A stretch of DNA of 33,742 bases from an uncultured Bacilli bacterium (GTDB lineage Bacteria > Bacillota_I > Bacilli_A > RF39 > UBA660): contig CANQLF010000001.1 of NCBI GenBank assembly GCA_947624635.1, forward strand, positions 1 to 33,742. Direction: 5' to 3'. The stretch's first letter is position 1; every line of letters begins with the position of its first letter. The position numbers were made by a program, and so were the translations under genes. This document shows positions 1,024 to 33,608 of this stretch, one piece after another. The notes beneath the pieces were generated by a model. That model searched no databases. It had not been told where the DNA came from and worked only from the letters and a program-made list of their open reading frames with translations.

Positions 1024-1728
1024 TTATGATCCAGCTGGTAAATTAGCTGCTGCTTGATTTGCTTCAACTTTTACTGTAGCATTAATGGTTAATTCTTGTA
1101 ATTCATCTTGAGGTTCATTATTTTCTTGAATCCATATTAATAAAACATATTTTTTTTCTGCTTTTGATGCTTGTTCTGTTAATGTTTTTACTTGTTCTGC
1201 AGTTATACTTTCAACTGAGCTACTTTCAGTATTATTAAGTAGTTTATGATTAGTCATGTCTCCACCAAAAGTTCCATCTTCTAATTTTGTATATGTTTTT
1301 GCTCCTTCAGCTTCTGTAACGCTAAGTAATGCCCAATTAATATCTTGTACTACACCATTTTTTGGTTCAGGTGCTGAATCTGCTTTAGGAAGATCTTCTA
1401 GATTTGTTGTAGTTAAATAAAAATTATAATACGCATCAATTGTCGTTCCAGTAAAATCAACAGTAATTGGTAGTTGCGCAACGTCTGTATTTTTTGTTAA
1501 TATTTCATCTGTTAAACCTTCAACTGTAAAATCTGTTGGTTTAATGTTTTCTTGAGAAACTGTTCCTGATGTTGCTTGAACTTTTAGTTCTCCTGTAGTA
1601 ATATCTTGTACATCTACTGTATCAGCTGCACTAAAGTATGCAAAAGTTGCACCTACTATTGCTACTAATAATGTTGCTGCTCCAATTATAGTTAATAGGA
1701 CATTATTATTTTTTCTTTCGTTTTCCAT
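1024..1728 (-). CDS. Secreted TasA/camelysin-like protein, paralogue B, with SipW-type signal peptide
   Basis: ORF 1024..1812 trimmed to the ATG at 1728 (M29), preceded by AGAAGGAGA. N-terminus MENERKNNNVLLTIIGAATLLVAIVGATFAYFSA. N- and C-terminal thirds are closely similar to paralogue A (KYVLLIWIQENNEPQDELQELTINATVKVEANQAAANLP). The middle is diverged, with an extra ~25-aa segment. Confidence 0.6.
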   Translation of the reverse strand: MENERKNNNVLLTIIGAATLLVAIVGATFAYFSAADTVDVQDITTGELKVQATSGTVSQENIKPTDFTVEGLTDEILTKNTDVAQLPITVDFTGTTIDAYYNFYLTTTNLEDLPKADSAPEPKNGVVQDINWALLSVTEAEGAKTYTKLEDGTFGGDMTNHKLLNNTESSSVESITAEQVKTLTEQASKAEKKYVLLIWIQENNEPQDELQELTINATVKVEANQAAANLPAGS

Positions 1729-1784
1729 ATAAATTCTCCTTCTAAAAATCGTGTTACAAATACTATTCACAATTCTAACAGAAG

Positions 1785-1812
1785 TATATAAAAATCCCCC
1801 CCCGGTTGTCAA
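1785..1812 (-). promoter_or_regulatory. Sigma-A-type promoter of TasA-like gene B with a G8 tract in the spacer
   Basis: On the - strand: TTGACA (1807-1812), ACC, GGGGGGGG (1796-1803), ATTTT, TATATA (1785-1790). Spacer is 16 nt. Confidence 0.5.
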
Positions 1813-2968: not shown

Positions 2969-3391
2969 TTATTCTTCTTCTTCACTTTCATCTTTATCTA
3001 TTATAACTAAGTCTTCTAAATCATCGTCTTCGTAATCTTCATTTGCATCGTAGTCTACATCTTTTTCATCATCTTCGTCGTCATCATCATCTTCGTCGAT
3101 TTCTACATCTATATCATCTTCGTCATCTATAACTATTTTAGCACTGTGTCTTTCTCTTAAATCCCAATTACCACTATCTAGTGCATAAAATCTTTTATCT
3201 GTTGTAAGTGATGTATAAAAGTCACCAATTCTATCTGCATATTCATCATCAGATAATTCTAATAATTTAGCAATTTCTTTAAACAATTCAACAGTTGTTT
3301 TCTGTTCTTTACATTTTTTTAATATTTCATAAGCTATATCAGTGAATGATAATAATTCTAATTCATCTTTTTTCATTTTGTAAATGTTCAT
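2969..3391 (-). CDS. rpoE: DNA-directed RNA polymerase delta subunit
   Basis: 140 aa. N-terminal HARE-HTH-like domain (FTDIAYEILK...LFKEIAKLL...RIGDFYTSLTTDKRFYAL..WDLR) followed by a long D/E-rich acidic tail. GGAGGA RBS lies 6 nt upstream of the ATG at 3391. Confidence 0.85.
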   Translation of the reverse strand: MNIYKMKKDELELLSFTDIAYEILKKCKEQKTTVELFKEIAKLLELSDDEYADRIGDFYTSLTTDKRFYALDSGNWDLRERHSAKIVIDDEDDIDVEIDEDDDDDEDDEKDVDYDANEDYEDDDLEDLVIIDKDESEEEE

Positions 3392-7507: not shown

Positions 7508-8854
7508 TTATCTTCTTAGTTTTCCATTTTCTACTTCAACATTAACAGATTTATTATAATTTGGTTCATATTCTCTAATCAATGTATTTAAAAATGCTAA
7601 TTTTAATTTTAACTTTGCCATTTCTTCTCTTAAAGGTTTTACTACTGTTGTTAATGGTAATACAATTTGTGTTGCAAGTTGAACATAGTCTTGTCCCTCA
7701 AAATTATATTCTGTAACAAATTTTTTATTTAATTTTTCTTCTAATTCTTTTGCTTTTTCTAAGCCCATTGATGATGGATTCATTAAAATTGTAGAAGATG
7801 TTAATATTCCATTTTGATCTCCCATATTAACTTGAGTTTTTGTACTTCCTTGGTATGAAGATTCATTTGTTGGTGATAATTTATCTACAAATCCACCTAC
7901 CCCTACACAAGCATTTCCCATAATACCCCTATGCCATCCTTTAACTTTTGAAAACTCACTTTCTGTATATGTATGAGATAAATACTTACTTGGAAAGAAG
8001 TTTGGATTAATATATAAATTTTTAACTAAAGTAATCAAATCATTACTTGATGCAAACACACCAGCGTGACCACTATACCCTCCTAATTTAATAGCTTTTA
8101 AATCATTATTTTTTCCTATCTCTGAATTAGGTGTTCCTGTTATTAAATCCCTTTTTATTTCTGGTACATTTATGAATGTATTTTCTAAATGTAATTTTTG
8201 TATTATATACTTATTTATTAATTCTTCATAACTTAATCCTGTAACTTTTTCCATTACATCTTTAAGACACATCATACCATAATCTATGTAGTTATAATCA
8301 TTTTTTTCTATTACACCCAAAGTGTGTAATATTTGATTAGCTTCTTCAATTGATGTTGCATTATTAATATTTCCTTCTATGTTATATGAAAAAGTAAATC
8401 CCATTATAGTTTTAATATCTAAATTAGTTGCATTTTTATATCTTGGATCTAAATCGGATACTACACTATCGAAATTATAATATCCTTCACTAATTAAATT
8501 ATAAGAAATAATTTGTGCAAATAATTTTGATATTGATGCAATATCAAATATGGCATCTTTACTCATTTTATTTTGTTTATTATCAATATCTCCACCATAA
8601 CTTGTTACATTTATTATTCCTGTATTATTTTGCATTACATATCCTGGTATTGGATTACTGTTCATAACTTCCTTTGTTTGATTAAGTAGTCCAGGTAATA
8701 GTGCATAAACAATTTCTTCTAATGATTTATCTTTGTTATCTTTTAAGACTGGTTCTACTTCATTAATTACTTGTAATATTTCTTCTTTTGATGCATAGCT
8801 TCCTTGTTTTACTGCATCAACTGCAAATTTTTCTGCTATTTTGTTAAAGTTCAT
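7508..8854 (-). CDS. Serine hydrolase, beta-lactamase (class C-related) family; apparently cytoplasmic
   Basis: 448 aa. S-x-x-K nucleophile motif in DIASISKLFAQ, typical of the beta-lactamase/esterase fold family. No signal peptide visible. Confidence 0.6.
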   Translation of the reverse strand: MNFNKIAEKFAVDAVKQGSYASKEEILQVINEVEPVLKDNKDKSLEEIVYALLPGLLNQTKEVMNSNPIPGYVMQNNTGIINVTSYGGDIDNKQNKMSKDAIFDIASISKLFAQIISYNLISEGYYNFDSVVSDLDPRYKNATNLDIKTIMGFTFSYNIEGNINNATSIEEANQILHTLGVIEKNDYNYIDYGMMCLKDVMEKVTGLSYEELINKYIIQKLHLENTFINVPEIKRDLITGTPNSEIGKNNDLKAIKLGGYSGHAGVFASSNDLITLVKNLYINPNFFPSKYLSHTYTESEFSKVKGWHRGIMGNACVGVGGFVDKLSPTNESSYQGSTKTQVNMGDQNGILTSSTILMNPSSMGLEKAKELEEKLNKKFVTEYNFEGQDYVQLATQIVLPLTTVVKPLREEMAKLKLKLAFLNTLIREYEPNYNKSVNVEVENGKLRR

Positions 8855-9138
8855 ATTAGATAATCTCCCCTTTATATATTATACATAATACATTTCTTTT
8901 TTGTTTATTCAATTTTATTTTTTTTAATCTTTTTTTTATTATTTTAACACAATATCAAACTTAATAATTAAGCAAATGCAAAATTTTACAAAATAATATG
9001 TAAAAAGTCCTATTAAACTAATAATAGAACTTTAAAACATTTACAACCGAGATCACTTATTTCTCACAACACCTAGAAGTGATTAACATTTATATTATTA
9101 ATGTCAATATTTTTTGTTAATTTTAATAAAAGATGAAT

Positions 9139-9870
9139 CTATTCAGATTCACCCTTATTGTCATTAGCTTCATTTTTTCCTTCTTGTATACCTTTACTAA
9201 TTGATTTTGCTATGTCACCAATTGCCGGTGCAACTTCTTTACCAATTGTTGCCCCTACTTTACCAACGGTTGGTGCCATTTTTTCCATACCTTCTTGTGC
9301 TACAGGCATAACTTGTTGAACTCCAAATGCAAGCATTTCTCTACGTTTAGAGAATAAATAAACTCCTAATGATATAATACCTGATACTAGTATTATAAAT
9401 CCTCCAAAGACATATAATGGAACGTATTTTGCCGTTGAAATTTTATTATATAATACAGGATAAACAGTATTTGATAAATTAAATTCTTCCATCTCTAAAT
9501 CTGACAATTGAGAGTTTAATGCACTAGATTCTCTTTCACATTTATTAACATTTGCAAACCAATTACTTCCATGTTCAATTGAGTCACACTCTGTTTCCTT
9601 TTCATCTATTTTTGCATTTAATTCTTCTTTTTCATTTTTTATTTCTTCTAATCTTTGTTGATCTTGTACTTTCTTTTGTTCTACTTGTTTATATATTTTA
9701 TTATAATTTTCTTCATTTGTTTTTTTAGCATTATTTGATAATACTAATCCTGTAGTTATTAATCCTGTTCCTATTAATATTCCAGCTATTAATATAATTA
9801 AAGCTATTTTTTTAATTTTCTTTTTTGATTTTTCATAGTTTTCTTCTGTTAAAAATTCTTTCTTTTCCAT
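9139..9870 (-). CDS. Membrane protein with two TM helices flanking a coiled-coil ectodomain; function unknown
   Basis: 243 aa. TM helices at IALIILIAGILIGTGLITTGLVL and YVPLYVFGGFIILVSGIISLGVYLF. E/K-rich heptad-like segment between them. AAGGAGTGA RBS. Starts 16 nt after the stop of the upstream gene, so likely the same operon. Confidence 0.5.
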   Translation of the reverse strand: MEKKEFLTEENYEKSKKKIKKIALIILIAGILIGTGLITTGLVLSNNAKKTNEENYNKIYKQVEQKKVQDQQRLEEIKNEKEELNAKIDEKETECDSIEHGSNWFANVNKCERESSALNSQLSDLEMEEFNLSNTVYPVLYNKISTAKYVPLYVFGGFIILVSGIISLGVYLFSKRREMLAFGVQQVMPVAQEGMEKMAPTVGKVGATIGKEVAPAIGDIAKSISKGIQEGKNEANDNKGESE

Positions 9871-9885
9871 ACTATTTTCACTCCT

Positions 9886-11472
9886 TTATTCATTATTCAT
9901 ATTTGAATTTATATTATCATTATTACTAGTAGTAATATTATCTATATTTGGTGTTGGACTATCATCTATTATATCTATTATTTCTTCATTTGATTCTTCA
10001 ATTGGCATTTCATTATTTTCTATATTGTTTTGTTGTTGAAAGTCAATGTTATCTTGTGTATTCAATTCTTTTGGTGGAGTATTATCAATATTATTTTTAT
10101 TGTTTTTATTTTTCTTTTTAATAAAATAGAATACTATTAAACCTATAATTATTAATAATTCTATAATAGTAAATACTACAAAGATATTAAAGCTATTATC
10201 TTTTTTATCATTATTAGTTTTAATATTAGTTTTAATGTTTGATTCTACATTTTTTATATTTGACATAGTTATTAAATAATTATTGCCATTTGTAGTAGAA
10301 AATTCTATATATCCATCTTTAACTATTAAATTATCTTCAATTTTTACTAATTTATTATTAACTTTATCATAGTAATATATATTTAGTTTATCACCATTAT
10401 TATATTTATCACCAACATATAATTTTATTTTTGTTCCTTCTGGTAAATTATTATTAATTATTATTTGTTTTCCATCTGCATAATTTGATAATTCGTTTAT
10501 TTCTTTTGATGGTTTTTTAATATCAATATTTAAGTTTAATTCTTTAGAATTATTTATTTTAGAACCATCTAATAAAATACTATAAAGTAATTTATTGTTA
10601 TTATCATAGTAATCAAAATTAATTTTTTTACCACTCTTTTTAATTTTATCTATATCGTTTGATGATAATTTAGTATTAGCATCTACTTTTATATTAGCTT
10701 CTTTAATATTAGAATCTTTTAATATATTATCTAAATCTTCTATAGTATAACTATCTTTTCTAGTTATTTTAATATTTATTTTGTTTTGTGTACCTGATTG
10801 TGAAGTAACAATTATTTCAATATTATTTTCCCCTACTTTTAATTCATGTGTTCCTGTACCTGTTATTTTTGCATTAATATCTTCTGCTACTGCTTTAATA
10901 TTAACTTTATCTGTACTATATGGAACTGTTAATGTGTAATTATTTTTATCAACTTTGTTTAAGTTGAAACCTTCGACTTCTAAACTAGTAAGATCTACAT
11001 TTGATGATTTATTATTTGTATTAGATGATGGTTTATTATTGTTTGTATTTGAGTTATTATTTGTACCACCTGTACTTGGTGATGGATTAGGTTTTGGTGT
11101 AGATTTTCCTACTACATTAACATTTATTGTATATGTTTTTCCTGTTAAATCTTCATCATCATAACTTGTAACGTCAGTTGTATATACTTTTATAGAAGTC
11201 GACCCAACACTATTTGCTTTAACAGTTATAGTTACACTATTCATATCTAAAAATTCACTAGTACTAGAGATACTTGCAATGCTAGAATTATTTGTTGAAA
11301 TATCAACTCTACCTGCACAATTATCTGCATTTATGGTAAATGTGGCACTACTACCTTTAGTTATAGTTAAGTTTGTTGTAGAAACACTTATACTACCTCT
11401 TGCAAGTACATTTATCGGTATCATTAGTAATATTAGTGCAAGGGTTAGAAATATATTTTTTAACTTCTTCAT
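9886..11472 (-). CDS. Surface protein: signal peptide, Ig-like beta-sandwich domain, N/S/T-rich linker, cadherin-like beta-sandwich domain, C-terminal TM anchor
   Basis: Start moved to the ATG at 11472 (MKKLKNIFLTLALILLMIPINVLA), preceded by AGGAGA. The segment LTSLEVEGFNLNKVDKNNYTLTVPYSTDKVNIKAVAEDINAKITGTGTHELKVGENNIEIIVTSQSGTQNKINIKITR fits the bacterial cadherin-like repeat pattern. TM helix FNIFVVFTIIELLIIIGLIVFYFI lies near the C-terminus. Confidence 0.6.
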   Translation of the reverse strand: MKKLKNIFLTLALILLMIPINVLARGSISVSTTNLTITKGSSATFTINADNCAGRVDISTNNSSIASISSTSEFLDMNSVTITVKANSVGSTSIKVYTTDVTSYDDEDLTGKTYTINVNVVGKSTPKPNPSPSTGGTNNNSNTNNNKPSSNTNNKSSNVDLTSLEVEGFNLNKVDKNNYTLTVPYSTDKVNIKAVAEDINAKITGTGTHELKVGENNIEIIVTSQSGTQNKINIKITRKDSYTIEDLDNILKDSNIKEANIKVDANTKLSSNDIDKIKKSGKKINFDYYDNNNKLLYSILLDGSKINNSKELNLNIDIKKPSKEINELSNYADGKQIIINNNLPEGTKIKLYVGDKYNNGDKLNIYYYDKVNNKLVKIEDNLIVKDGYIEFSTTNGNNYLITMSNIKNVESNIKTNIKTNNDKKDNSFNIFVVFTIIELLIIIGLIVFYFIKKKNKNNKNNIDNTPPKELNTQDNIDFQQQNNIENNEMPIEESNEEIIDIIDDSPTPNIDNITTSNNDNINSNMNNE

Positions 11473-11495
11473 AAAATTTTCTCCTATCATACTTA

Positions 11496-14400
11496 CTATT
11501 CAATAAACTCTGTTCCCATAATGTGTTTTCTAATCTTGATGTAATCTTTTGAAGTAATAACTTCATCTAGGTTAATATCTGCTGCATAGAATAATGTTTT
11601 ATCAGTTATTACTTCAGATCCCATTATATGCTTTCTAATTTTAATATAGTCTTTTGAAGTTATTTCACCATCCCCATTTATATCTCCTGCTAAAGCAATT
11701 TTATAATCAAAATCTTTTGTATTATTTATTTTAATTCTTACTATATCTTTTGTCTTAACATCATCTGAAGTAGTTAATTCATTACTTGATTCGTAATGAG
11801 AATATGCTATTTCATTAGCAAAATAATTAAATCTTTCAATTATTTTAGAAAAACTTTTATTTTTTGTTATTACTACATTATCTCTAATTGATAGTGGAGG
11901 ATTAACACCTCTTATACCATATATTTTTACTTTATTACTTCCCATTAAAGTTTCATAACCTTCAGCAGTTACCTTGTATTTAACTGTGTATTCACCAACA
12001 AACATGAACGAAGGTACCTTACTTCCATAGTCTGTATCATCAACGGAATACTCTATTTCATAATCATCTATATCCAATTTAATATCAAGTGAATGTAATT
12101 GACCATCATATATACCCTCATAATCTTTTGTATAATTAAATATTATATTGGTATTATATACATTAACTGATAATTCAATATTTTCAATCACTTCATAATT
12201 TTCAGTATCTTCTGGTGTATATTTTGCTAGAAATGTTTGTTCACCTACTTCTGTTATTGTTTGATTTTTATCCATCCACTCAAATCCTGTTGGTAAATCT
12301 ATATCACTTAATTTCATGTTTACTTTTGCTTTTAGATTATTTGGCTTTTCATAATTAGGTGTTGCTTTTGATACATTTACATTTACATTTTTTTCATAAG
12401 TTTCATTATATATATCATTAATTATTACTGTGTAATATGAATGATTAAATCTAAAACTATCTAAATTATTTATATATTTAATTGTATATCCATCTGTTAT
12501 AGTTTTACTATTAGTTTCTTCTTTATATTCGTTATCTTTATTATATCCTTTTTCAAAATTTAAAGATATTGAACTTATGTCACTGCTAGTAACTTTTTCA
12601 AATGCTTTATATGATGTTTTATTTGCATTAATAGTTATTTCTGGATTTAAGGTTTCATATTTTATTTTATTATTTTTTGCATATTCTTTTGCATAAGCAT
12701 CACTGTATGTATAAATTGTTAAATCTATTTTTTCTTGTTGTGTATTTTTATCAAAAGAATTTGTAGCTATTGAATCGACTGATCTTGGAATATAAACTTC
12801 TTTTAATTTTTTACAAGCATAAAAAGCATGATCTTTAATTTCTTTAACTTTTTTTGGAATAATAATACTATTTATACCACTATTTACAAATGCCATTGCA
12901 TTTATTTGTTCAATTGATTCTGGTAAATTAACCGTTTCAAGATTTTCACAATTAAAGAAGGTATTGGATTCAATTGTTTTAACACCATCTGGAATATCAA
13001 TACTCTTAATATTAGTTCCAGAAAAAGCATTACTGCCTATATATGTAATACTTTCAGGTATATTTATATGTTCAAGTTTAGAACATCCAGAGAAAGCACC
13101 ATTTTCTATTCTAGTAATTTTTTCTGCTAATTTAATGTTATCCAAGAATTCACAACCTGAAAAAGCTTGAGAACCAATTTTAGAAATCACACCATTAAAT
13201 GTCGTAAGTTTGTAATTATACATAAAAGCATTTTCATTAATTTCTATTTCTGGACTGTTTATTATTACTTTTTCTAATGTAGATTTTGAATCTTGTGATA
13301 ATATTTTTTCAGCACGAAAAACATTTTTTCCAATTTTAGATATTGTTTTTGGTAAATTTATAATTTTAAAGTATTCAAAATCTTTTGAATTTTTAAACAT
13401 ATCTGAACTACTACTTGATGTTGAATCTGCTAATGATACTACATTATATTCGTTAATTGTTTCAGGAAAATATAAACTAAGATATTTTTGATTATTATCT
13501 TTGTAATGTGTTAATTCTATATTAGATGAATCAAGAATATTATATTCCCAGCCTACATCTTCAAATCTCGGATTTGTTATATTAAAGGCTTCCGTTAAAC
13601 CATCATATTTAATTGTTACAGTTTGTTGGGTATTACTATTTGGATTATATCCTTCTATTTCTATATTCTCTAATTTACCCAAAGTCCTTGTTATTTTTCT
13701 ACCGTCATTATAGTGAATTAAAATTTCTGTTGGAAATAAATTATTTACACTATAATAATTATAGTCTGTTGTTTTAATGTTAGTTACTTCTATTTTAGTT
13801 ATTTCAGTTGCACTTTTAGAAAATATACCATATTCATCACATTCATCTTCTTGACTATTATCACAAAATTTAGCATTATTAAATGAGATTAATCCATATC
13901 CATAGTATTCATCCCATCCTTCATCACCTAAATCTTGAGCATATATTTTTAATAATTCGATTGCATCATCAATTGTAAGGTCTTTATTAAGTGATTTTAA
14001 AATTGCTACTGAACTTACTGCATGTGGTGTAGCCATAGAAGTTCCACTCATTTTTCCATTAATACTTTCTATATCTGTTCCAGGGGCAGTAAAAGTTATA
14101 TATCTTCCATAATTTGAAAAATCAGATTTATTTAAAGACGAATCTACTGAAGAAATAGCAATTGTAGTATCAAGAGCTGCAGGATATGATTTATCAGATG
14201 TGCTTTCATTACCTGCTGCAGCAACACTTATTATATTTTGTTCTTTTGCTGCTTCTATTGCACTATCAAGTGCTAAATCGTTTCTTTCTGAGCCAAAGCT
14301 CATGTTAATAACATCTGCTTTTTTGTCTTGAACTATATAATTTACTGCTGCTACTATTTTAACTGTATCAATAGATTTATCATCTGATACTTTAACTGGT

Positions 14401-15056
14401 AAAATTTTAACGTTATTTGGTGTACTTTCAGCAATTGTTCCAGCTATATGTGTACCATGTCCATAATTATCAAACATATCACTATCTGAAGTTAGTATAT
14501 TATAAGTTTTTTCTATTTTTCCTGAATAATTTTCATTAAATAAATCCATATCACAACCTGTATCTATTATTGCTACTGTAATATCATTTAATTTTTGTGA
14601 ATTAGCAAATTCAATTGCATCATCTAGTCCCATTTTTTCTACTCCCCAAGAATTATAATTTCCATCTACATTTGAAAAAGTATAAGTTATATTTTCTTGT
14701 ACAATAATAGAAGGATCATTTTTTAATTTATTAAATGCTTTATCTTTATTTTTCAAATTGTCATATTGTAGGATATATTGATTATTAGGAGCATCAATTA
14801 TTTTTTTAGCTCCGTATGTTTCTTTTAATTTTTCTTCAGATATTACAATTAATATATTGTCTTTTTCATCTTCTTTTATTTCTGATACTTCTTTAAAATA
14901 ATTATTCATAAATTCTTTTGGTAATTTTGAAATATTTATTAGGTCATCAGTTAGTTTATTATTATTTAATAATTTATGTTTAAAATAAAAGCAACAAGTT
15001 ATTGAACCAATTAAAAAGATTACTAAAAAGGCACTGATATACAATCTTTTTTTCAT
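11496..15056 (-). CDS. Large secreted subtilisin-family (S8) serine protease with BspA-type leucine-rich repeats, Ig-like modules and a C-terminal dockerin
   Basis: 1186 aa. S8 catalytic triad contexts: AIIDTGCD (Asp), HGTHIAGTIA (His), GTSMATPHAV (Ser). LRR_5-like repeats, e.g. FSGCSKLEHINIPESITYIGSNAFSG. Duplicated Ca-binding dockerin segments GDINGDGEITSKDYIKIRKHIMG and ADINLDEVITSKDYIKIRKHIMG at the C-terminus (about nt 11499-11714). Confidence 0.85.
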   Translation of the reverse strand: MKKRLYISAFLVIFLIGSITCCFYFKHKLLNNNKLTDDLINISKLPKEFMNNYFKEVSEIKEDEKDNILIVISEEKLKETYGAKKIIDAPNNQYILQYDNLKNKDKAFNKLKNDPSIIVQENITYTFSNVDGNYNSWGVEKMGLDDAIEFANSQKLNDITVAIIDTGCDMDLFNENYSGKIEKTYNILTSDSDMFDNYGHGTHIAGTIAESTPNNVKILPVKVSDDKSIDTVKIVAAVNYIVQDKKADVINMSFGSERNDLALDSAIEAAKEQNIISVAAAGNESTSDKSYPAALDTTIAISSVDSSLNKSDFSNYGRYITFTAPGTDIESINGKMSGTSMATPHAVSSVAILKSLNKDLTIDDAIELLKIYAQDLGDEGWDEYYGYGLISFNNAKFCDNSQEDECDEYGIFSKSATEITKIEVTNIKTTDYNYYSVNNLFPTEILIHYNDGRKITRTLGKLENIEIEGYNPNSNTQQTVTIKYDGLTEAFNITNPRFEDVGWEYNILDSSNIELTHYKDNNQKYLSLYFPETINEYNVVSLADSTSSSSSDMFKNSKDFEYFKIINLPKTISKIGKNVFRAEKILSQDSKSTLEKVIINSPEIEINENAFMYNYKLTTFNGVISKIGSQAFSGCEFLDNIKLAEKITRIENGAFSGCSKLEHINIPESITYIGSNAFSGTNIKSIDIPDGVKTIESNTFFNCENLETVNLPESIEQINAMAFVNSGINSIIIPKKVKEIKDHAFYACKKLKEVYIPRSVDSIATNSFDKNTQQEKIDLTIYTYSDAYAKEYAKNNKIKYETLNPEITINANKTSYKAFEKVTSSDISSISLNFEKGYNKDNEYKEETNSKTITDGYTIKYINNLDSFRFNHSYYTVIINDIYNETYEKNVNVNVSKATPNYEKPNNLKAKVNMKLSDIDLPTGFEWMDKNQTITEVGEQTFLAKYTPEDTENYEVIENIELSVNVYNTNIIFNYTKDYEGIYDGQLHSLDIKLDIDDYEIEYSVDDTDYGSKVPSFMFVGEYTVKYKVTAEGYETLMGSNKVKIYGIRGVNPPLSIRDNVVITKNKSFSKIIERFNYFANEIAYSHYESSNELTTSDDVKTKDIVRIKINNTKDFDYKIALAGDINGDGEITSKDYIKIRKHIMGSEVITDKTLFYAADINLDEVITSKDYIKIRKHIMGTEFIE

Positions 15057-15114: not shown

Positions 15115-15135
15115 CTGATATAACGACAATTTTTT

Positions 15136-15165
15136 AAAGAAAAAAACTAACAATTTTGCTAGTTT
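15136..15165 (-). terminator. Rho-independent terminator after the noc-like gene
   Basis: - strand RNA AAACUAGC-AAAAUU-GUUAGUUU (15144-15165, 8-bp stem with one G-U pair), followed by UUUUCUUU. Starts immediately after the stop codon at 15166-15168. Confidence 0.65.
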
Positions 15166-16572
15166 CTATTTTTGTATATTTATTACTATTTGATGAGTAG
15201 TACCCATGTCTTGTTCATCAACATTAATTATATATCCATTGTTTTGTAAATTAACTACTGTATTTCTTATAACTGCAACTGCACCTGTTATATCTTGTTG
15301 AGCTATAAATGATGTAGGTTGAGCCTCAGTCATTGGAGGCATACCAGTAAGGCCTGCTTGATTAGGTGAACCAAATGCAGGTGGTTCTTGCATGAAATTG
15401 TTATTTGGTTCTATTTGATGTTCATTTATATTTGGATTACCAAATTGATTTGGATCAAATGTAGCATTATTAGGGTTAAATGTATTACCCATATTCATAT
15501 TTGCTGCTTCATCATCTAAGTTGTTAAAGAACCTTCCTCCTATTGATTCATTATTTTGTTGTGCCATACCATTTTGCATTCCCATTTGATTTGGATCTTG
15601 CATTATTGCTGGATTATTTGGAACATCTTGATTCATTGGAGTTCCACCAAATACTGGAGGCTCACTTGGTTGTGATGGTTGTGGTATTGGTTGATTATTT
15701 ATATCCAAAGGATTTGGAACATCACTAATAGGCATTTGATTTAAATTATTTTGGTTATTTATATTTGAATTTTCTTGATTAATGTTATTATCAATTGGTG
15801 GTGCATCAACATTATTTTGATTCATATCTTGTTCACCTTCAATACTTATAGGAGTTGGTTCTACTTCAATATTTGGTGTATCAACATTATCTGTACTTGC
15901 TTCAGGTGAAGCTGGAGTATCTATTTGAAAATCTATTATTTCACTATCTTCTTCTGTATCTTGTGGTGTATCATTTCCTAACATGTTTTTAATTTCATTA
16001 TCAGTTTCTCTAACAGTAAGTCTATTTTCAATTATTTTATTTAACATTTCATTTTGAGCAGTTTTATCTTTTAATTTTAATAAACTTCTTGCATGTCTTT
16101 CTGATATTTTAGTATCGAGTAATGCTTGTTGAGCTTCATCACTTAAATTTAATAATCTTAATTTGTTAGATACTGTTGATTGAGTCTTACCTACTCTTTT
16201 AGCTAATTCTTCTTGATTCATTTGTCCTAATTCTAATATTTTTTCATAAGATTTTGCTTCTTCTATTGCAGTTAAATCTTTTCTTTGTATGTTTTCAACT
16301 AAAGCTATTTCTGCACTATCTGCATCATTTATTTCCATAACAATTGATGGAACAGTTTTAAGACCTATTATATTTGCAGCTTTAAATCTTCTTTCACCTG
16401 CAATTATTTCATACTTATCTCCTAGTTTTCTTAAAACTAATGGTTGAATTAGGCCATGTTGTCTAATTGAATCAGCTAATTCGTTTAATGATTCTTCATC
16501 AAAGTTTTTTCTAGGTTGAAATCTGTTAGGAATAATATCATTAACACTTATTTGTTCAACTTGATTGTTCAT
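15166..16572 (-). CDS. noc: ParB/Noc-family CTP-switch DNA-binding protein with Noc-type HTH and a long Q/N/P-rich low-complexity insertion
   Basis: 468 aa. ParB box IIPNRFQPR and GERRFKAA arginine patch. HTH region GKTQSTVSNKLRLLNL...ISERHARSL resembles B. subtilis Noc rather than Spo0J. Sits directly downstream of rsmG, as noc does in Bacillus. AAGGAGGGG RBS before the ATG at 16572. An in-frame TGA lies 14 codons upstream with no start codon between, so the N-terminus cannot be longer. Confidence 0.75.
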   Translation of the reverse strand: MNNQVEQISVNDIIPNRFQPRKNFDEESLNELADSIRQHGLIQPLVLRKLGDKYEIIAGERRFKAANIIGLKTVPSIVMEINDADSAEIALVENIQRKDLTAIEEAKSYEKILELGQMNQEELAKRVGKTQSTVSNKLRLLNLSDEAQQALLDTKISERHARSLLKLKDKTAQNEMLNKIIENRLTVRETDNEIKNMLGNDTPQDTEEDSEIIDFQIDTPASPEASTDNVDTPNIEVEPTPISIEGEQDMNQNNVDAPPIDNNINQENSNINNQNNLNQMPISDVPNPLDINNQPIPQPSQPSEPPVFGGTPMNQDVPNNPAIMQDPNQMGMQNGMAQQNNESIGGRFFNNLDDEAANMNMGNTFNPNNATFDPNQFGNPNINEHQIEPNNNFMQEPPAFGSPNQAGLTGMPPMTEAQPTSFIAQQDITGAVAVIRNTVVNLQNNGYIINVDEQDMGTTHQIVINIQK

Positions 16573-16620
16573 AGGACCCCTCCTTATTCTATCTATTATT
16601 GTATCTTTTTTTCATTATTT

Positions 16621-17319
16621 TTACAATGGATTTTTTTTAATTTGTTCAAATTTTCTTGGATACTTTTCATCTGTTTTACTTATTTTTTTAAATTTTATTA
16701 GTGTTCTCTTACTATTTTCTATTGGAAGAGTAAATTCTTTTATACTATCTAGTTTACAGTTTAACTTTTTACAAGCACTATCTATATTGTTTAATTCATC
16801 ATTAATATTTGCTTTTAGTGCAATGAAGTATCCATTAATTTTAGTTAGTGGCATTGCAAGTTCTATAAGTGTATTTGTTTTTGCAACTGCACGTGCTACT
16901 ACCAAATCGTATTTTTCTCGTTTCTTAAAATCTTCTATTCTTGTATGTATTGCTTCTATATCTTTTAAGTTTAATTTAGCTATTACATCATTTAGAAAAT
17001 TAATTCTTTTTTGTAATGAATCAATTAATGTTACTTTAATATTTGGAAAAAGTATTTTAATAGGAATTCCAGGAAAACCTGCACCACTACCCATATCGCA
17101 TAATGTATTTATGTTTTCTAAATTAATTGATAGATTTAGGGTTAGTGAATCATAAAAATGTTTTAAGTAAACATCTTTTTCTTCTGTTATTCCTGTTAAG
17201 TTCATTACTTTGTTATATTCTATTAACATTTTATAATATGTATCAAACATATTTAATTGTTCATCTGTAATTTGTATGTTTAAATCTTTTAAATAAGTAA
17301 TAAATTCATTCTTATTCAT
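16621..17319 (-). CDS. rsmG: 16S rRNA (guanine527-N7)-methyltransferase
   Basis: 232 aa. SAM-binding motif DMGSGAGFPGIPIKI. Conserved position after mnmG, with a 1-nt TAATG overlap with the mnmG stop. Confidence 0.9.
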   Translation of the reverse strand: MNKNEFITYLKDLNIQITDEQLNMFDTYYKMLIEYNKVMNLTGITEEKDVYLKHFYDSLTLNLSINLENINTLCDMGSGAGFPGIPIKILFPNIKVTLIDSLQKRINFLNDVIAKLNLKDIEAIHTRIEDFKKREKYDLVVARAVAKTNTLIELAMPLTKINGYFIALKANINDELNNIDSACKKLNCKLDSIKEFTLPIENSKRTLIKFKKISKTDEKYPRKFEQIKKNPL

Positions 17320-23493: not shown

Positions 23494-23509
23494 TATTTCC
23501 CGGGAAATA
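23494..23509. promoter_or_regulatory. Noc-binding-site (NBS)-type palindrome 1
   Basis: TATTTCCCGGGAAATA, a perfect 16-bp palindrome (extends to 24 bp, 23490-23513). The core equals the B. subtilis NBS consensus ATTTCCCGGGAAAT. Confidence 0.7.
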
Positions 23510-23539
23510 TTTTATTTCCCGGGAAATATTTTATTTCCC
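23495..23539. repeat. 19-bp tandem direct repeat, 2.4 copies (ATTTCCCGGGAAATATTTT)
   Basis: Identical units at 23495-23513 and 23514-23532, plus a partial unit at 23533-23539. Confidence 0.9.
23513..23528. promoter_or_regulatory. Noc-binding-site (NBS)-type palindrome 2
   Basis: Second perfect TATTTCCCGGGAAATA, with its centre 19 bp from the first. A third half-site TATTTCCC follows at 23532-23539. Confidence 0.7.
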
Positions 23540-23823
23540 AAATCCACAGGTATCTGTGGAAAACTATACTATATTTTTATAGTTTTTATAGAGTTTTCCA
23601 CAGTTTCAACAGCTATGTTGATAAATTTTACCACAAGTGTGTTTAATTTATCAACAAGAATGTGTATAATTTAATATTTATATTATAAAATATTAAATTT
23701 TGCTGTGGAAAAGTCTGTGAATATTAAATTTTCTTTAATTTTTTTCATATTTTTGTTTTCTTTTCAACAGTTTTAGTTTAAAATATTAATTAGATTGGAA
23801 TACTTTATTGGAGGTGATTGGTT

Positions 23824-26610: not shown

Positions 26611-27051
26611 ATGAATTGCTACGAAATAAATGAGGAAACATTAGCTATATTACCTTATGGAGATACACAAAGTAAAATAATTGAAAAATATAAGGAATTT
26701 ATAGTTAATAAAACTCCTTATGAAATTATAACTTACAGTTGTTTATATTTTGGCAGTTCCTATGAAGGAAGAATTTCAGCAACTAAGTACCTTCTTGGAA
26801 TATCATATAAATCACCAATTGTAATAGAAGAATCTCGCAATTTAATTTTCTTTCCAACAAACTCGCCAAAATTACAAGACTGTAGCTGGATTTCTTTGAA
26901 AAGTATAGTAGACTATAAGAGAAATAATAGTAAATCAATGATATTATTTGATAATAACGTTAGATTACCACTTGATATTTCTTATGGTTCTCTAGAAAAT
27001 CAAATTATGAGAGCTTCTAGGTTAGACTCTATGTTAAGAAACAACAGATAA
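26611..27051 (+). CDS. comK: ComK-family protein (competence transcription factor-like), short form
   Basis: 146 aa. Aligns by eye with B. subtilis and S. aureus ComK landmarks: AILPYGD..SKIIEK, SCLYFGSSYEGR, GISYKSPIVIE, IFFPTNSP, CSWISL, ISYGSLENQ. GGGGGTGA RBS. Confidence 0.65.
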   Translation: MNCYEINEETLAILPYGDTQSKIIEKYKEFIVNKTPYEIITYSCLYFGSSYEGRISATKYLLGISYKSPIVIEESRNLIFFPTNSPKLQDCSWISLKSIVDYKRNNSKSMILFDNNVRLPLDISYGSLENQIMRASRLDSMLRNNR

Positions 27052-32702: not shown

Positions 32703-32704
32703 AA

Positions 32705-32720
32705 TGTTTCACGTGAAACA
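32705..32720. promoter_or_regulatory. parS site 1 (ParB/Spo0J centromere-like site)
   Basis: TGTTTCACGTGAAACA, a 16/16 fit to the Firmicute parS consensus TGTTNCACGTGAAACA. Perfect palindrome, 18 bp with flanking A/T. Confidence 0.85.
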
Positions 32721-32810
32721 TAGGTAGAAATTCTAATAAAAAAATAAAATTTAACAAAAAAATATAATTAAATATTGAAATAAATACTATTGATTATAAA
32801 AATAAAACAA

Positions 32811-32826
32811 TGTTTCACGTGAAACA
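32811..32826. promoter_or_regulatory. parS site 2
   Basis: Identical TGTTTCACGTGAAACA, 106 bp from site 1. Confidence 0.85.
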
Positions 32827-32917
32827 TAGGATTGAAATACTAATAAAATAATTGAGTTTAATCAAAACTATAATTAAATGTTAAAATAAATAATATTAAT
32901 TATAAAAAAAAAGACAA

Positions 32918-32933
32918 TGTTTCACGTGAAACA
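32918..32933. promoter_or_regulatory. parS site 3
   Basis: Identical TGTTTCACGTGAAACA, 107 bp from site 2. Confidence 0.85.
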
Positions 32934-33024
32934 TTAGATAGAAATGCAAATAAAATAATAAAACTTAATTAAAAATATAATTAAATGTTAAAATAAATAA
33001 TATTAATTATGAAAACAAAAATAA

Positions 33025-33040
33025 TGTTTCACGTGAAACA
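33025..33040. promoter_or_regulatory. parS site 4
   Basis: Identical TGTTTCACGTGAAACA, 107 bp from site 3 and 14 bp upstream of the ffs -35 element. Confidence 0.85.
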
Positions 33041-33053
33041 TTAATTATATTTC

Positions 33054-33083: not shown

Positions 33084-33087
33084 ATTA

Positions 33088-33167
33088 GTGCACAACAAAT
33101 ATGTTGGAACCAGGTCAGAATTGGAAGATAGCAGCCTTAACAACCTCTGTTTGTGTGTGCTTTTTTT
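33088..33167 (+). ncRNA. ffs: Signal recognition particle RNA, short (4.5S-like) form
   Basis: Domain IV signature CCAGGTCAGAATTGGAAGATAGCAGCC, including a GGAA tetraloop closed by AUU/GAU and the conserved AGCAGCC strand. The 5' GTGCACAACAAA pairs with the 3' TTTGTGTGTGC and is followed by T7. Ends uncertain by a few nt. Confidence 0.75.
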
Positions 33168-33179
33168 ATGGTGATGTTT

Positions 33180-33608
33180 ATGAATAATAAATTTTTGAAT
33201 GAAATAATTAAATTAGCAGAAAAAGCTGAGAAAAATAATTGCGTTCCAGTAGGTGCAATTGTAGTTAAAGATAATAAGATAATTAGTAAAGGCTATAATA
33301 AGAAAGAAAAAACTAACAATCCTATGGATCATGCAGAAATAATTGCAATTAAAAAAGCTTCTAAGAAAATTAAAAATTGGAGGATGCCAGATTGTGAAAT
33401 TTATGTAACGATGAAACCATGTGCTATGTGTCAAAAAGTGATTGCTGAAAGTAGAATAATGAAAGTACACTACTTAATTGATAATAAAAAACAATCAAGC
33501 ACAACAAATAATATTTTAAATAAAATAAATATGCAAAAAGAAAACGAACGTATATATGAAATAAATTATACTAAAATAATAACAAATTTTTTTAAAAAAA
33601 GACGATAA
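33180..33608 (+). CDS. tadA: tRNA-specific adenosine deaminase (CDA-fold zinc deaminase)
   Basis: Zinc-binding motifs DHAEIIAIKKA (HAE) and PCAMCQKVI (PCxxC). Start chosen at the ATG at 33180 (MNNKFLNEI), 4 nt after GGTGAT. The ORF-track start at 33153 lies inside the SRP RNA. ATGs at 33168 and 33174 are also possible. Confidence 0.8.
   Translation: MNNKFLNEIIKLAEKAEKNNCVPVGAIVVKDNKIISKGYNKKEKTNNPMDHAEIIAIKKASKKIKNWRMPDCEIYVTMKPCAMCQKVIAESRIMKVHYLIDNKKQSSTTNNILNKINMQKENERIYEINYTKIITNFFKKRR

Follow-up and report, generated by a model that had tools for sequence, protein, structure and literature searches.

A probable Noc orthologue without the N-terminal membrane helix and with a long acidic linker in uncultured Bacilli

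In Bacillus subtilis Noc, the N-terminal helix α1 is required for membrane binding and nucleoid occlusion. Is a Noc-like protein that lacks this helix still a Noc and, if so, what could take the place of the helix? The question is raised by a 33,742-nucleotide stretch of DNA from an uncultured Bacilli bacterium (contig CANQLF010000001.1, positions 1–33,742; hereafter the window), in which a gene at 15166..16572 on the minus strand encodes a 468-aa protein of the ParB family. This protein belongs to a large clade of uncultured, AT-rich Bacilli, in which it is very probably the orthologue of Noc. Judged from its sequence it would represent a previously undescribed structural variant, lacking the membrane helix by which characterised Noc proteins are defined.

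Noc-type identity of the protein

The coding sequence (stop codon TAG at 15166–15168) was a real open reading frame (ORF) in the ORF list and was recognised as that of a Noc-like ParB-family protein by Pfam and NCBIfam. A Shine-Dalgarno sequence, AAGGAGGGG (16577..16585, minus strand), was read 4 nt ahead of the ATG. The 48 nt between the stop codon of rsmG (16621–16623) and the ATG read, in frame with the noc ORF, aaa TAA TGA aaa ..., so that TAA and TGA stand 15 and 14 codons upstream of the start. Because of these in-frame stops, the rsmG stop and the nearby AAGGAGGGG, the short N-terminus is real and the start is fixed. A longer N-terminus obtained by reading TGA as Trp (genetic code 4) was rejected, since TAA also precedes the ATG and the rsmG stop is in frame.

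The protein begins with a ParB N-terminal domain of the cytidine triphosphate (CTP)-binding type, without the α1/α2 leader (residues 1–96; 16285..16572, minus strand), which was delimited by Pfam, alignment and AlphaFold2, with a predicted local distance difference test (pLDDT) of 84–95. It is followed by a helix-turn-helix (HTH) DNA-binding domain carrying Q131, K137, N142 and R159 (residues 97–198; 15979..16284, minus strand), which was placed by Pfam and by a fold match to 6Y93, the Noc DNA-binding domain in complex with the Noc-binding site (NBS). A disordered acidic linker comes next (residues 199–426; 15295..15978, minus strand), delimited by AlphaFold2 pLDDT, composition and clade-wide linker statistics. 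The protein ends with a Noc-type C-terminal dimerisation domain (CTD) of one helix and two strands (residues 427–468; 15169..15294, minus strand), placed by AlphaFold2 and hhalign. Pfam matched ParB_N at residues 4–96 (1.3e-34) and HTH_ParB at residues 98–197 (5.5e-33). The motifs GERR (G59, E60, R61, R62) and ENxQR (E93, N94, Q96, R97) were invariant in 74 clade members.

Over residues 1–200 the protein was 46.9% identical to B. subtilis Noc and 46.6% to B. subtilis Spo0J. Since whole-domain identity fails to separate Noc from Spo0J, the assignment rests on specific features. The top NCBIfam model was TIGR04285 (nucleoid_noc), at 291.7 bits; the protein differs from characterised Noc in scoring under the 315-bit cut-off, and the alignment covered model positions 1–212 of 255, ending there because of the linker. 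The best sequence matches in PDB were Noc of G. thermoleovorans (206 bits), Noc of B. subtilis (186) and Spo0J of B. subtilis (179), and the closest fold to the AlphaFold2 model was that of G. thermoleovorans Noc (7NFU, E 5e-22). A profile of the clade CTD (last ~50 residues) was aligned with the canonical Noc CTD by hhalign (97.3%, E 1.8e-11) over 44 columns, the last of them at the C-terminus, and this domain was predicted confidently by AlphaFold2 (pLDDT ~94).

At the four positions that discriminate parS from NBS, ParB has R-T-A-G and Noc Q-K-K-R; Q173 and R201 (Caulobacter numbering) make the switch, and a single lysine at 179 or 184 is enough as a permissive residue for NBS binding (Jalal et al. 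2020, PMC7383237). In the window protein these positions read Q131-K137-N142-R159, with the Noc-type Q and R and one permissive K; position 184, unlike that of Noc, is N here. The parS-specifying R173 and G201 are not present, Q131 and R159 standing in their place, and the Spo0J encoded at a related locus (L002) has R and G. The N-terminus, MNNQVEQISVNDII, has no LG(K/R)GL ParA-stimulating peptide, and no ParA gene was found among the genes of the window.

Like Noc of B. subtilis, G. thermoleovorans and S. aureus (TIGR04285; 7NFU, 7NG0, 7OL9 and 6Y93), the protein combines an N domain of the CTP-binding ParB/Srx type bearing GERR and ENxQR, an HTH in which the Q and R that specify NBS occur with one permissive K, and a homologous CTD. 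The genome contains the same NBS core, ATTTCCCGGGAAAT, and the gene lies directly after rsmG and, in some relatives, before soj-spo0J. With Spo0J/ParB (B. subtilis Spo0J, 6SDK; L002 Spo0J) it has the N domain and HTH fold in common (~42–47% identity over residues 1–200) and presumably also the CTP-clamp chemistry, but it differs from them in having Q/R instead of R/G, no LG(K/R)GL, another CTD and no adjacent ParA in the window. The initial annotation had described the protein as Noc-type and not Spo0J-type, with three of four specificity residues of Noc type, the last ~40 aa resembling the Noc CTD, and a start set by the ribosome-binding site and the TGA 14 codons upstream. Each of these points was borne out by the model and structure matches, by alignment of the specificity residues to structures and clade, by the hhalign result, by the place of the gene after rsmG and by reading of the upstream 48 nt.

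Missing leader and acidic linker across the clade

The window protein has 14 residues ahead of PNRFQPR and B. subtilis Noc has 39. The ~25-residue N-terminal leader, consisting of the membrane helix α1 and α2, was not present, the initial annotation having already noted the missing helix, and in-frame stops lie upstream. The Noc proteins of B. subtilis and G. thermoleovorans begin MKH(S/P)FSR(F/L)F..GEKEQE, and 120 of 120 retrieved Bacillaceae Noc proteins do likewise. A leader of this MKHxFSRFF type was found in none of the 120 closest homologues of the window protein nor in 138 further representatives. The membrane helix of Noc is reportedly gated by CTP (Jalal et al. 2021). An N-terminal amphipathic helix was present in every Noc homologue examined by Adams et al. 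(2015), and Noc NΔ10 was non-functional. In the literature, no description of a helix-less Noc or of disordered linkers in ParB/Noc was found.

All 120 closest database homologues (290–747 aa) had 14–21 residues before PNRFQPR. By an exhaustive search of 1.84 billion 50%-identity representatives, the best 150 matches were all of the same protein type (252–339 bits, 245–982 aa); 138 of them were new beyond the 120 closest homologues, and 14–19 leading residues were counted in ~94% of these. Wherever the specificity residues were readable in the representatives, Q and R were present and position 184 was never K, and QKNR was the commonest combination in the clade. One homologue was named Ca. Coprovivens, with a GTDB placement of RF39/CAG-1000. 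Source names were generic, e.g. 'ParB/RepB/Spo0J family partition protein [Bacilli bacterium]'; annotation pipelines do not name these proteins Noc. The helix-less form with an acidic linker therefore appears, from the 120 homologues and 138 representatives, to be the standard form of a very large and very widespread clade, and its first description as an atypical paralogue had to be given up.

The linker was predicted to be disordered, with pLDDT <50 across residues 204–425 (AlphaFold2), in agreement with the earlier view of the insertion as a disordered linker that separates the DNA-binding domain from the dimerisation domain. Residues 200–426 (227 aa) contain 18.5% N, 13.7% P and 10.1% Q, with 33 D+E, one K+R and a net charge of −32. 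P and Q were enriched 4–5-fold relative to the other proteins of the window, and the probability of finding at most one basic residue, given the composition of those proteins, was ~1e-12. The initial description of the linker as Q/N/P-rich was correct as to the enrichment, but its foremost features are its acidity and the near absence of K/R. In place of the canonical Noc linker of ~15 aa with 46% K/R, the clade has an acidic disordered linker of 45–504 aa in close homologues and up to 739 aa in the representatives, carrying conserved motifs of its own. The net charge was negative in every delimited case of the 138 representatives (median −33, minimum −160).

Several islands were conserved in the sub-clade alignment: (E)EIIDFQxD; GG[RK]FFN(N)LDDEAANMNMGNTF; FDPxQF..PN(F/I)NEHQI(N/E)P; and PQPIIxQQDITGAV, the last running into the CTD. 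In the window protein, the first (SEIIDFQI, residues 210–217; 15922..15945, minus strand) contains E211, I212 and D214, which are invariant in the sub-clade. The [KR]FF motif, IGGRFFNNLDDEAANMNMGNT (residues 344–364; 15481..15543, minus strand), located by alignment, position-specific scoring matrix (PSSM) and hydrophobic moment, includes R347, the only basic residue of the linker. Island 3, FDPNQFGNPNINEHQIEP (residues 372–389; 15406..15459, minus strand), found by sub-clade alignment and regular-expression scan, has nearly invariant P380 and N381. The initial annotation had named, as grounds against its own reading, a membrane-targeting helix elsewhere in the protein together with a common and functionless insertion. 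The insertion is indeed common in the lineage and has a candidate amphipathic motif inside it; because of the conserved islands, however, the linker is not functionless.

The strongest and most widespread motif was GG[RK]FFN(N)LDDEAANMNM. The strict pattern [RK][FLWIM]F occurred in the linker of 76 of the 120 close homologues, at times in 2–3 copies, and a looser pattern in 128 of 254 linkers versus 4 of 254 shuffled ones. Variants in other members were NKILNLDDEEANMNM, GGRFITLEDEETNMDM and SKTFDFPE. Three known kinds of peptide, namely a β-clamp-binding motif (QL[SD]LF type), the C-terminal peptide of FtsZ and a peptide like the SSB tail, were considered and rejected by sequence pattern only.

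Sites at the origin and gene order

Two perfect NBS (23495–23508 and 23514–23527) and a half-site, ATTTCCC (23533–23539), were located in oriC by motif scan (23495..23539), confirming the NBS pair noticed initially. Directly after the half-site come the inverted DnaA boxes AAATCCACA (23540–23548) and TGTGGAAAA (23555–23563). The two NBS (tATTTCCCGGGAAATa) lie within a 19-bp duplication, to which the half-site is also due, and the array is ~270 bp upstream of dnaA; the observed count of perfect sites was reached by 0 of 100 shuffles. One perfect NBS each was found at the same oriC position in four related loci, L001 (3206), L006 (3152), L007 (3681) and L008 (2317). There the 16–18-bp ATATTTCCCGGGAAATAT is invariant while the flanks vary, and DnaA boxes AAATCCACA-N7-TGTGGAAAAC follow within 11–14 bp. 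Taken over the window and these four loci, a perfect NBS and an inverted pair of DnaA boxes are 11–30 bp apart in five related genomes, an arrangement by which the present proteins differ from known Noc. No perfect NBS was found in oriC of the more distant L002–L004, so that the site in oriC is confined to the sub-clade. These counts refer to the 20–34 kb seen per genome. The adjacency of NBS and DnaA boxes makes an origin-directed role of this putative Noc variant plausible, and the conservation of the site would be compatible with the origin organisation suggested at the outset.

Four perfect 16-bp parS sites (TGTTTCACGTGAAACA) were found by motif scan in a 107-bp tandem repeat of 3.2 copies with 86% matches (32703..33041). 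This array sits between the stop codon of gyrA and the gene for the signal recognition particle (SRP) RNA and is centromere-like, unlike the scattered parS of Bacillus. It points, indirectly, to a separate parS-binding ParB encoded outside the window. No parS was found in the loci of the relatives, which stop short of the region downstream of gyrA. The neighbouring bacterial small SRP RNA (33084–33169, plus strand; Rfam RF00169, 54.3 bits) overlaps a 151-aa ORF (33153–33608), so the GTG start of this ORF is probably too far upstream.

The order rsmG-noc was found in the window and in all relatives, and soj-spo0J came next only in L002/L003. There the Noc protein P0031 (404 aa) is helix-less and has a long linker; the following spo0J is canonical, its product starting MENKRRALGKGLEELF (LGKGL N-terminus) and having the ParB-type R...G in the HTH. 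Since soj and a canonical spo0J follow P0031, the helix-less protein takes the position of noc, alongside a true ParB. In the closest relatives, L006, L007 and L008, whose Noc proteins are 55–65% identical, noc is followed by a convergent gene for a class A penicillin-binding protein (PBP), argS, rpoE and prfA, and no soj-spo0J was found within 10 kb of noc. This order recurs in the window, except that noc and the PBP gene are separated there by ~8 kb of inserted genes, and in L004 uvrB follows noc. The ancestral ORI cluster of Firmicutes includes parA, parB and noc (PMC8136486). In this sub-clade the cluster is broken after noc. Because L002/L003 combine the helix-less, long-linker form with soj-spo0J, that form is older than the break, and absence of the helix is not linked to loss of soj-spo0J.

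Downstream of noc lies an AT-rich hairpin with a U-run, a probable intrinsic terminator (15135..15167, minus strand; RNA fold −9.4 kcal/mol, z −2.59), which was missed by a simple G+C-dependent scan. Past the hairpin come a near-consensus promoter-like site and a gene for an S8 subtilase with BspA-type leucine-rich repeats (LRRs) and a dockerin. A terminator and an unrelated protease operon had indeed been placed initially where Bacillus has soj-spo0J. The ~8 kb that separate noc from the convergent PBP gene (7508–15056, minus strand), not present in the closest relatives, encode this 1186-aa S8 subtilase, a cadherin-like-domain protein with N-rich tracts, a 243-aa membrane protein and a protein of β-lactamase fold, and are probably a lineage-specific insertion of surface-protein genes.

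Elsewhere in the window, a ComK-family gene (26611–27051, plus strand; Pfam 6e-45) lies between dnaN and recF of the origin cluster, as also in L002, L004, L006 and L007. Two tandem paralogues (177–911 and 1024–1812, minus strand) code for secreted proteins whose N-terminal signal is TasA/camelysin-like (...ATFAYFSA), with a weak Pfam match to Peptidase_M73; the TTG starts called for both are probably too far upstream. A 140-aa ORF (2969–3391, minus strand) has an extremely acidic C-terminal tail and, by synteny, presumably resembles the RNA polymerase delta subunit (RpoE). If it is RpoE, the same genome would encode a second acidic disordered tail on a nucleic-acid-related protein. TGA ended none of the 26 ORFs of the window (TAA 15, TAG 11). 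Over five loci (the window, L001 and L006–L008) it ended one of 75 long ORFs, that of L008 mnmG, which has a second stop right after it; in L002–L004, TGA ended 3–4 of 16 long ORFs. The scarcity of TGA stops may point to loss of release factor 2 or to TGA avoidance, and no in-frame TGA splitting a conserved gene was seen.

Possible modes of action

By family knowledge, the protein would dimerise via its Noc-type CTD, recognise the 16-bp NBS by its Q-K-N-R HTH and, after CTP-dependent clamp closure through the intact GERR/ENxQR N domain, spread on the DNA. In the sub-clade, the conserved site in oriC, next to the inverted DnaA-box pair (11–30 bp away), would serve for loading. Effector function may have moved into the linker, where the [KR]FF-acidic motif would act like α1-α2 of canonical Noc. 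It might be a weak amphipathic element, effective only when many clamps gather on NBS-flanking DNA, that contacts the membrane and/or docks back on the N domain, so that origin-proximal DNA would stay coupled to the envelope. The acidic linker could be a long spacer or brush suppressing non-specific DNA binding. To this explanation as a whole, a Noc orthologue with its effector relocated to the linker, we give an even chance; that the linker holds an internal α1-α2-like membrane or self-docking element is, granted orthology, a tentative proposal.

The [KR]FF motif has a weak likeness to SRFFGLGEKE of canonical α1-α2 and the highest helical hydrophobic moment of the linker, 0.60 versus 0.50 for the B. 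subtilis Noc helix. With a PSSM of the canonical Noc N-terminus (FSRFFGLGEKEx), the highest score fell on the motif in the window protein as well as in 45 of 120 homologues; with the reverse PSSM, the top window in canonical Noc was at position 5, making the motif a reciprocal best. At the equivalent motif of the homologue P0050 a short weak helix was predicted by AlphaFold2 (pLDDT ~51). The membrane-targeting amphipathic sequence of MinD reads ...KSFFG... Like this sequence and ...SRFFGLG... of Noc, the linker motif has FF after a basic residue and shows an amphipathic periodicity. It differs from both in being internal and not terminal, net acidic and followed by the conserved DDEAANMNM, and its lipid binding is putative.

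Several results weigh against a relocated element. The PSSM scores were low (8.4 and 6.0 bits; shuffle P 0.028 and 0.13) and, this significance being weak, homology of the motif with α1-α2 is not claimed. A local hidden Markov model of the canonical Noc N-terminus gave only negative-scoring fragments of 3–8 residues against the clade. At the motif of the window protein, AlphaFold2 showed neither a helix nor docking on the N domain, with pLDDT barely >50 at 346–349, and a third to half of the clade has variants only and no clear [KR]FF. The net charge of the motif was −1 to −3 versus +2 for the canonical helix, in a surrounding linker of −32. In B. subtilis Noc, K2E and R7E abolish membrane localisation (PMC4331003), so that membrane binding by a net acidic motif would be disfavoured, and for the same reason the 'relocated α1-α2-like element' is to be regarded as a lead, not a result.

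A real possibility, if an unlikely one, is that the protein is a membrane-independent origin regulator, which loads at the oriC NBS, spreads, and through its linker motifs binds a partner such as DnaA or some other factor of replication, segregation or division, controlling initiation or origin organisation. This would agree with oriC holding the only NBS in 33.7 kb and with the conservation of that NBS beside the DnaA-box pair in five genomes. Both motif and linker, being acidic, are ill suited to anionic membranes, and the conservation of ANMNM, EIIDF and FDPxQF..NEHQ is more like that of protein-binding short linear motifs than of a generic amphipathic anchor. Initiation is held in check by Noc in S. 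aureus, where chromatin immunoprecipitation sequencing gave small peaks of enrichment around dnaA (PMC5540599). The partner protein, however, is only hypothetical, and the motif was confined to Noc-like proteins, occurring in no other protein of the window or of the relatives' loci (~190 kb of related DNA). The site is also sub-clade-specific, L002–L004 being without it, and in view of the 20–34 kb seen per genome, NBS may be scattered as in Bacillus.

Alternatively, the protein could be a remnant of Noc, in which the DNA-binding core was kept (e.g. for chromosome organisation), the helix simply disappeared and the linker is a neutral low-complexity expansion, subject to drift and typical of AT-rich genomes. 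The hugely variable linker length (45–504 aa in close homologues, up to 739 aa in representatives), the predicted disorder and an N-richness in agreement with a genome of 26% G+C would fit neutral drift. It was judged improbable in view of the extreme K/R depletion (P ~1e-12), the enrichment of P and Q, which opposes the AT bias, and the negative charge, which is retained in each of the linkers delimited among the 138 representatives. Islands are conserved amid unalignable sequence, the [KR]FF motif is ~30-fold commoner than in shuffled linkers, and the CTD after the linker is in frame and conserved.

It is very improbable that the protein is a Spo0J, the partition ParB of the chromosome, whose HTH has diverged and which acts on the parS array of the window. 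Its near-equal identity to Spo0J and Noc (46.6% and 46.9% over the N and DNA-binding domains) and the four perfect parS sites with no second ParB gene visible in the window could be so explained. The Q and R at the specificity positions are nevertheless incompatible with a preference for parS, the N-terminal LG(K/R)GL motif for ParA interaction is absent, the CTD is Noc-type, perfect NBS are present, and relatives encode a separate canonical Soj and Spo0J beside noc. An assembly or sequencing artefact, or a pseudogene, giving a chimeric long ORF can be practically dismissed: low-complexity DNA of metagenomic contigs is prone to mis-assembly, but intact ORFs of the same architecture occur in hundreds of independent clusters (NCBI, JGI, ENA, Logan) and close relatives align end to end.

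We have here a large natural clade in which an NBS-specific CTP-type core and the Noc CTD appear to have been kept, the helix dropped and the charge of the linker inverted. In its boldest form, which is speculative and rather doubtful, this would be a clade-wide Noc without an N-terminal membrane switch that loads beside DnaA boxes and lays an acidic disordered brush on the origin, its short motifs engaging the replication or division machinery or forming an internal CTP-gated α1-α2-like switch. If true, Noc could act independently of the membrane or be anchored internally, linking origin firing or positioning to division. The clade offers a natural experiment on which parts of Noc serve what, on whether nucleoid occlusion can work without an N-terminal tether, and on whether a binding site beside DnaA boxes can mediate the link between Noc and initiation, for which the evidence in S. 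aureus is genetic.

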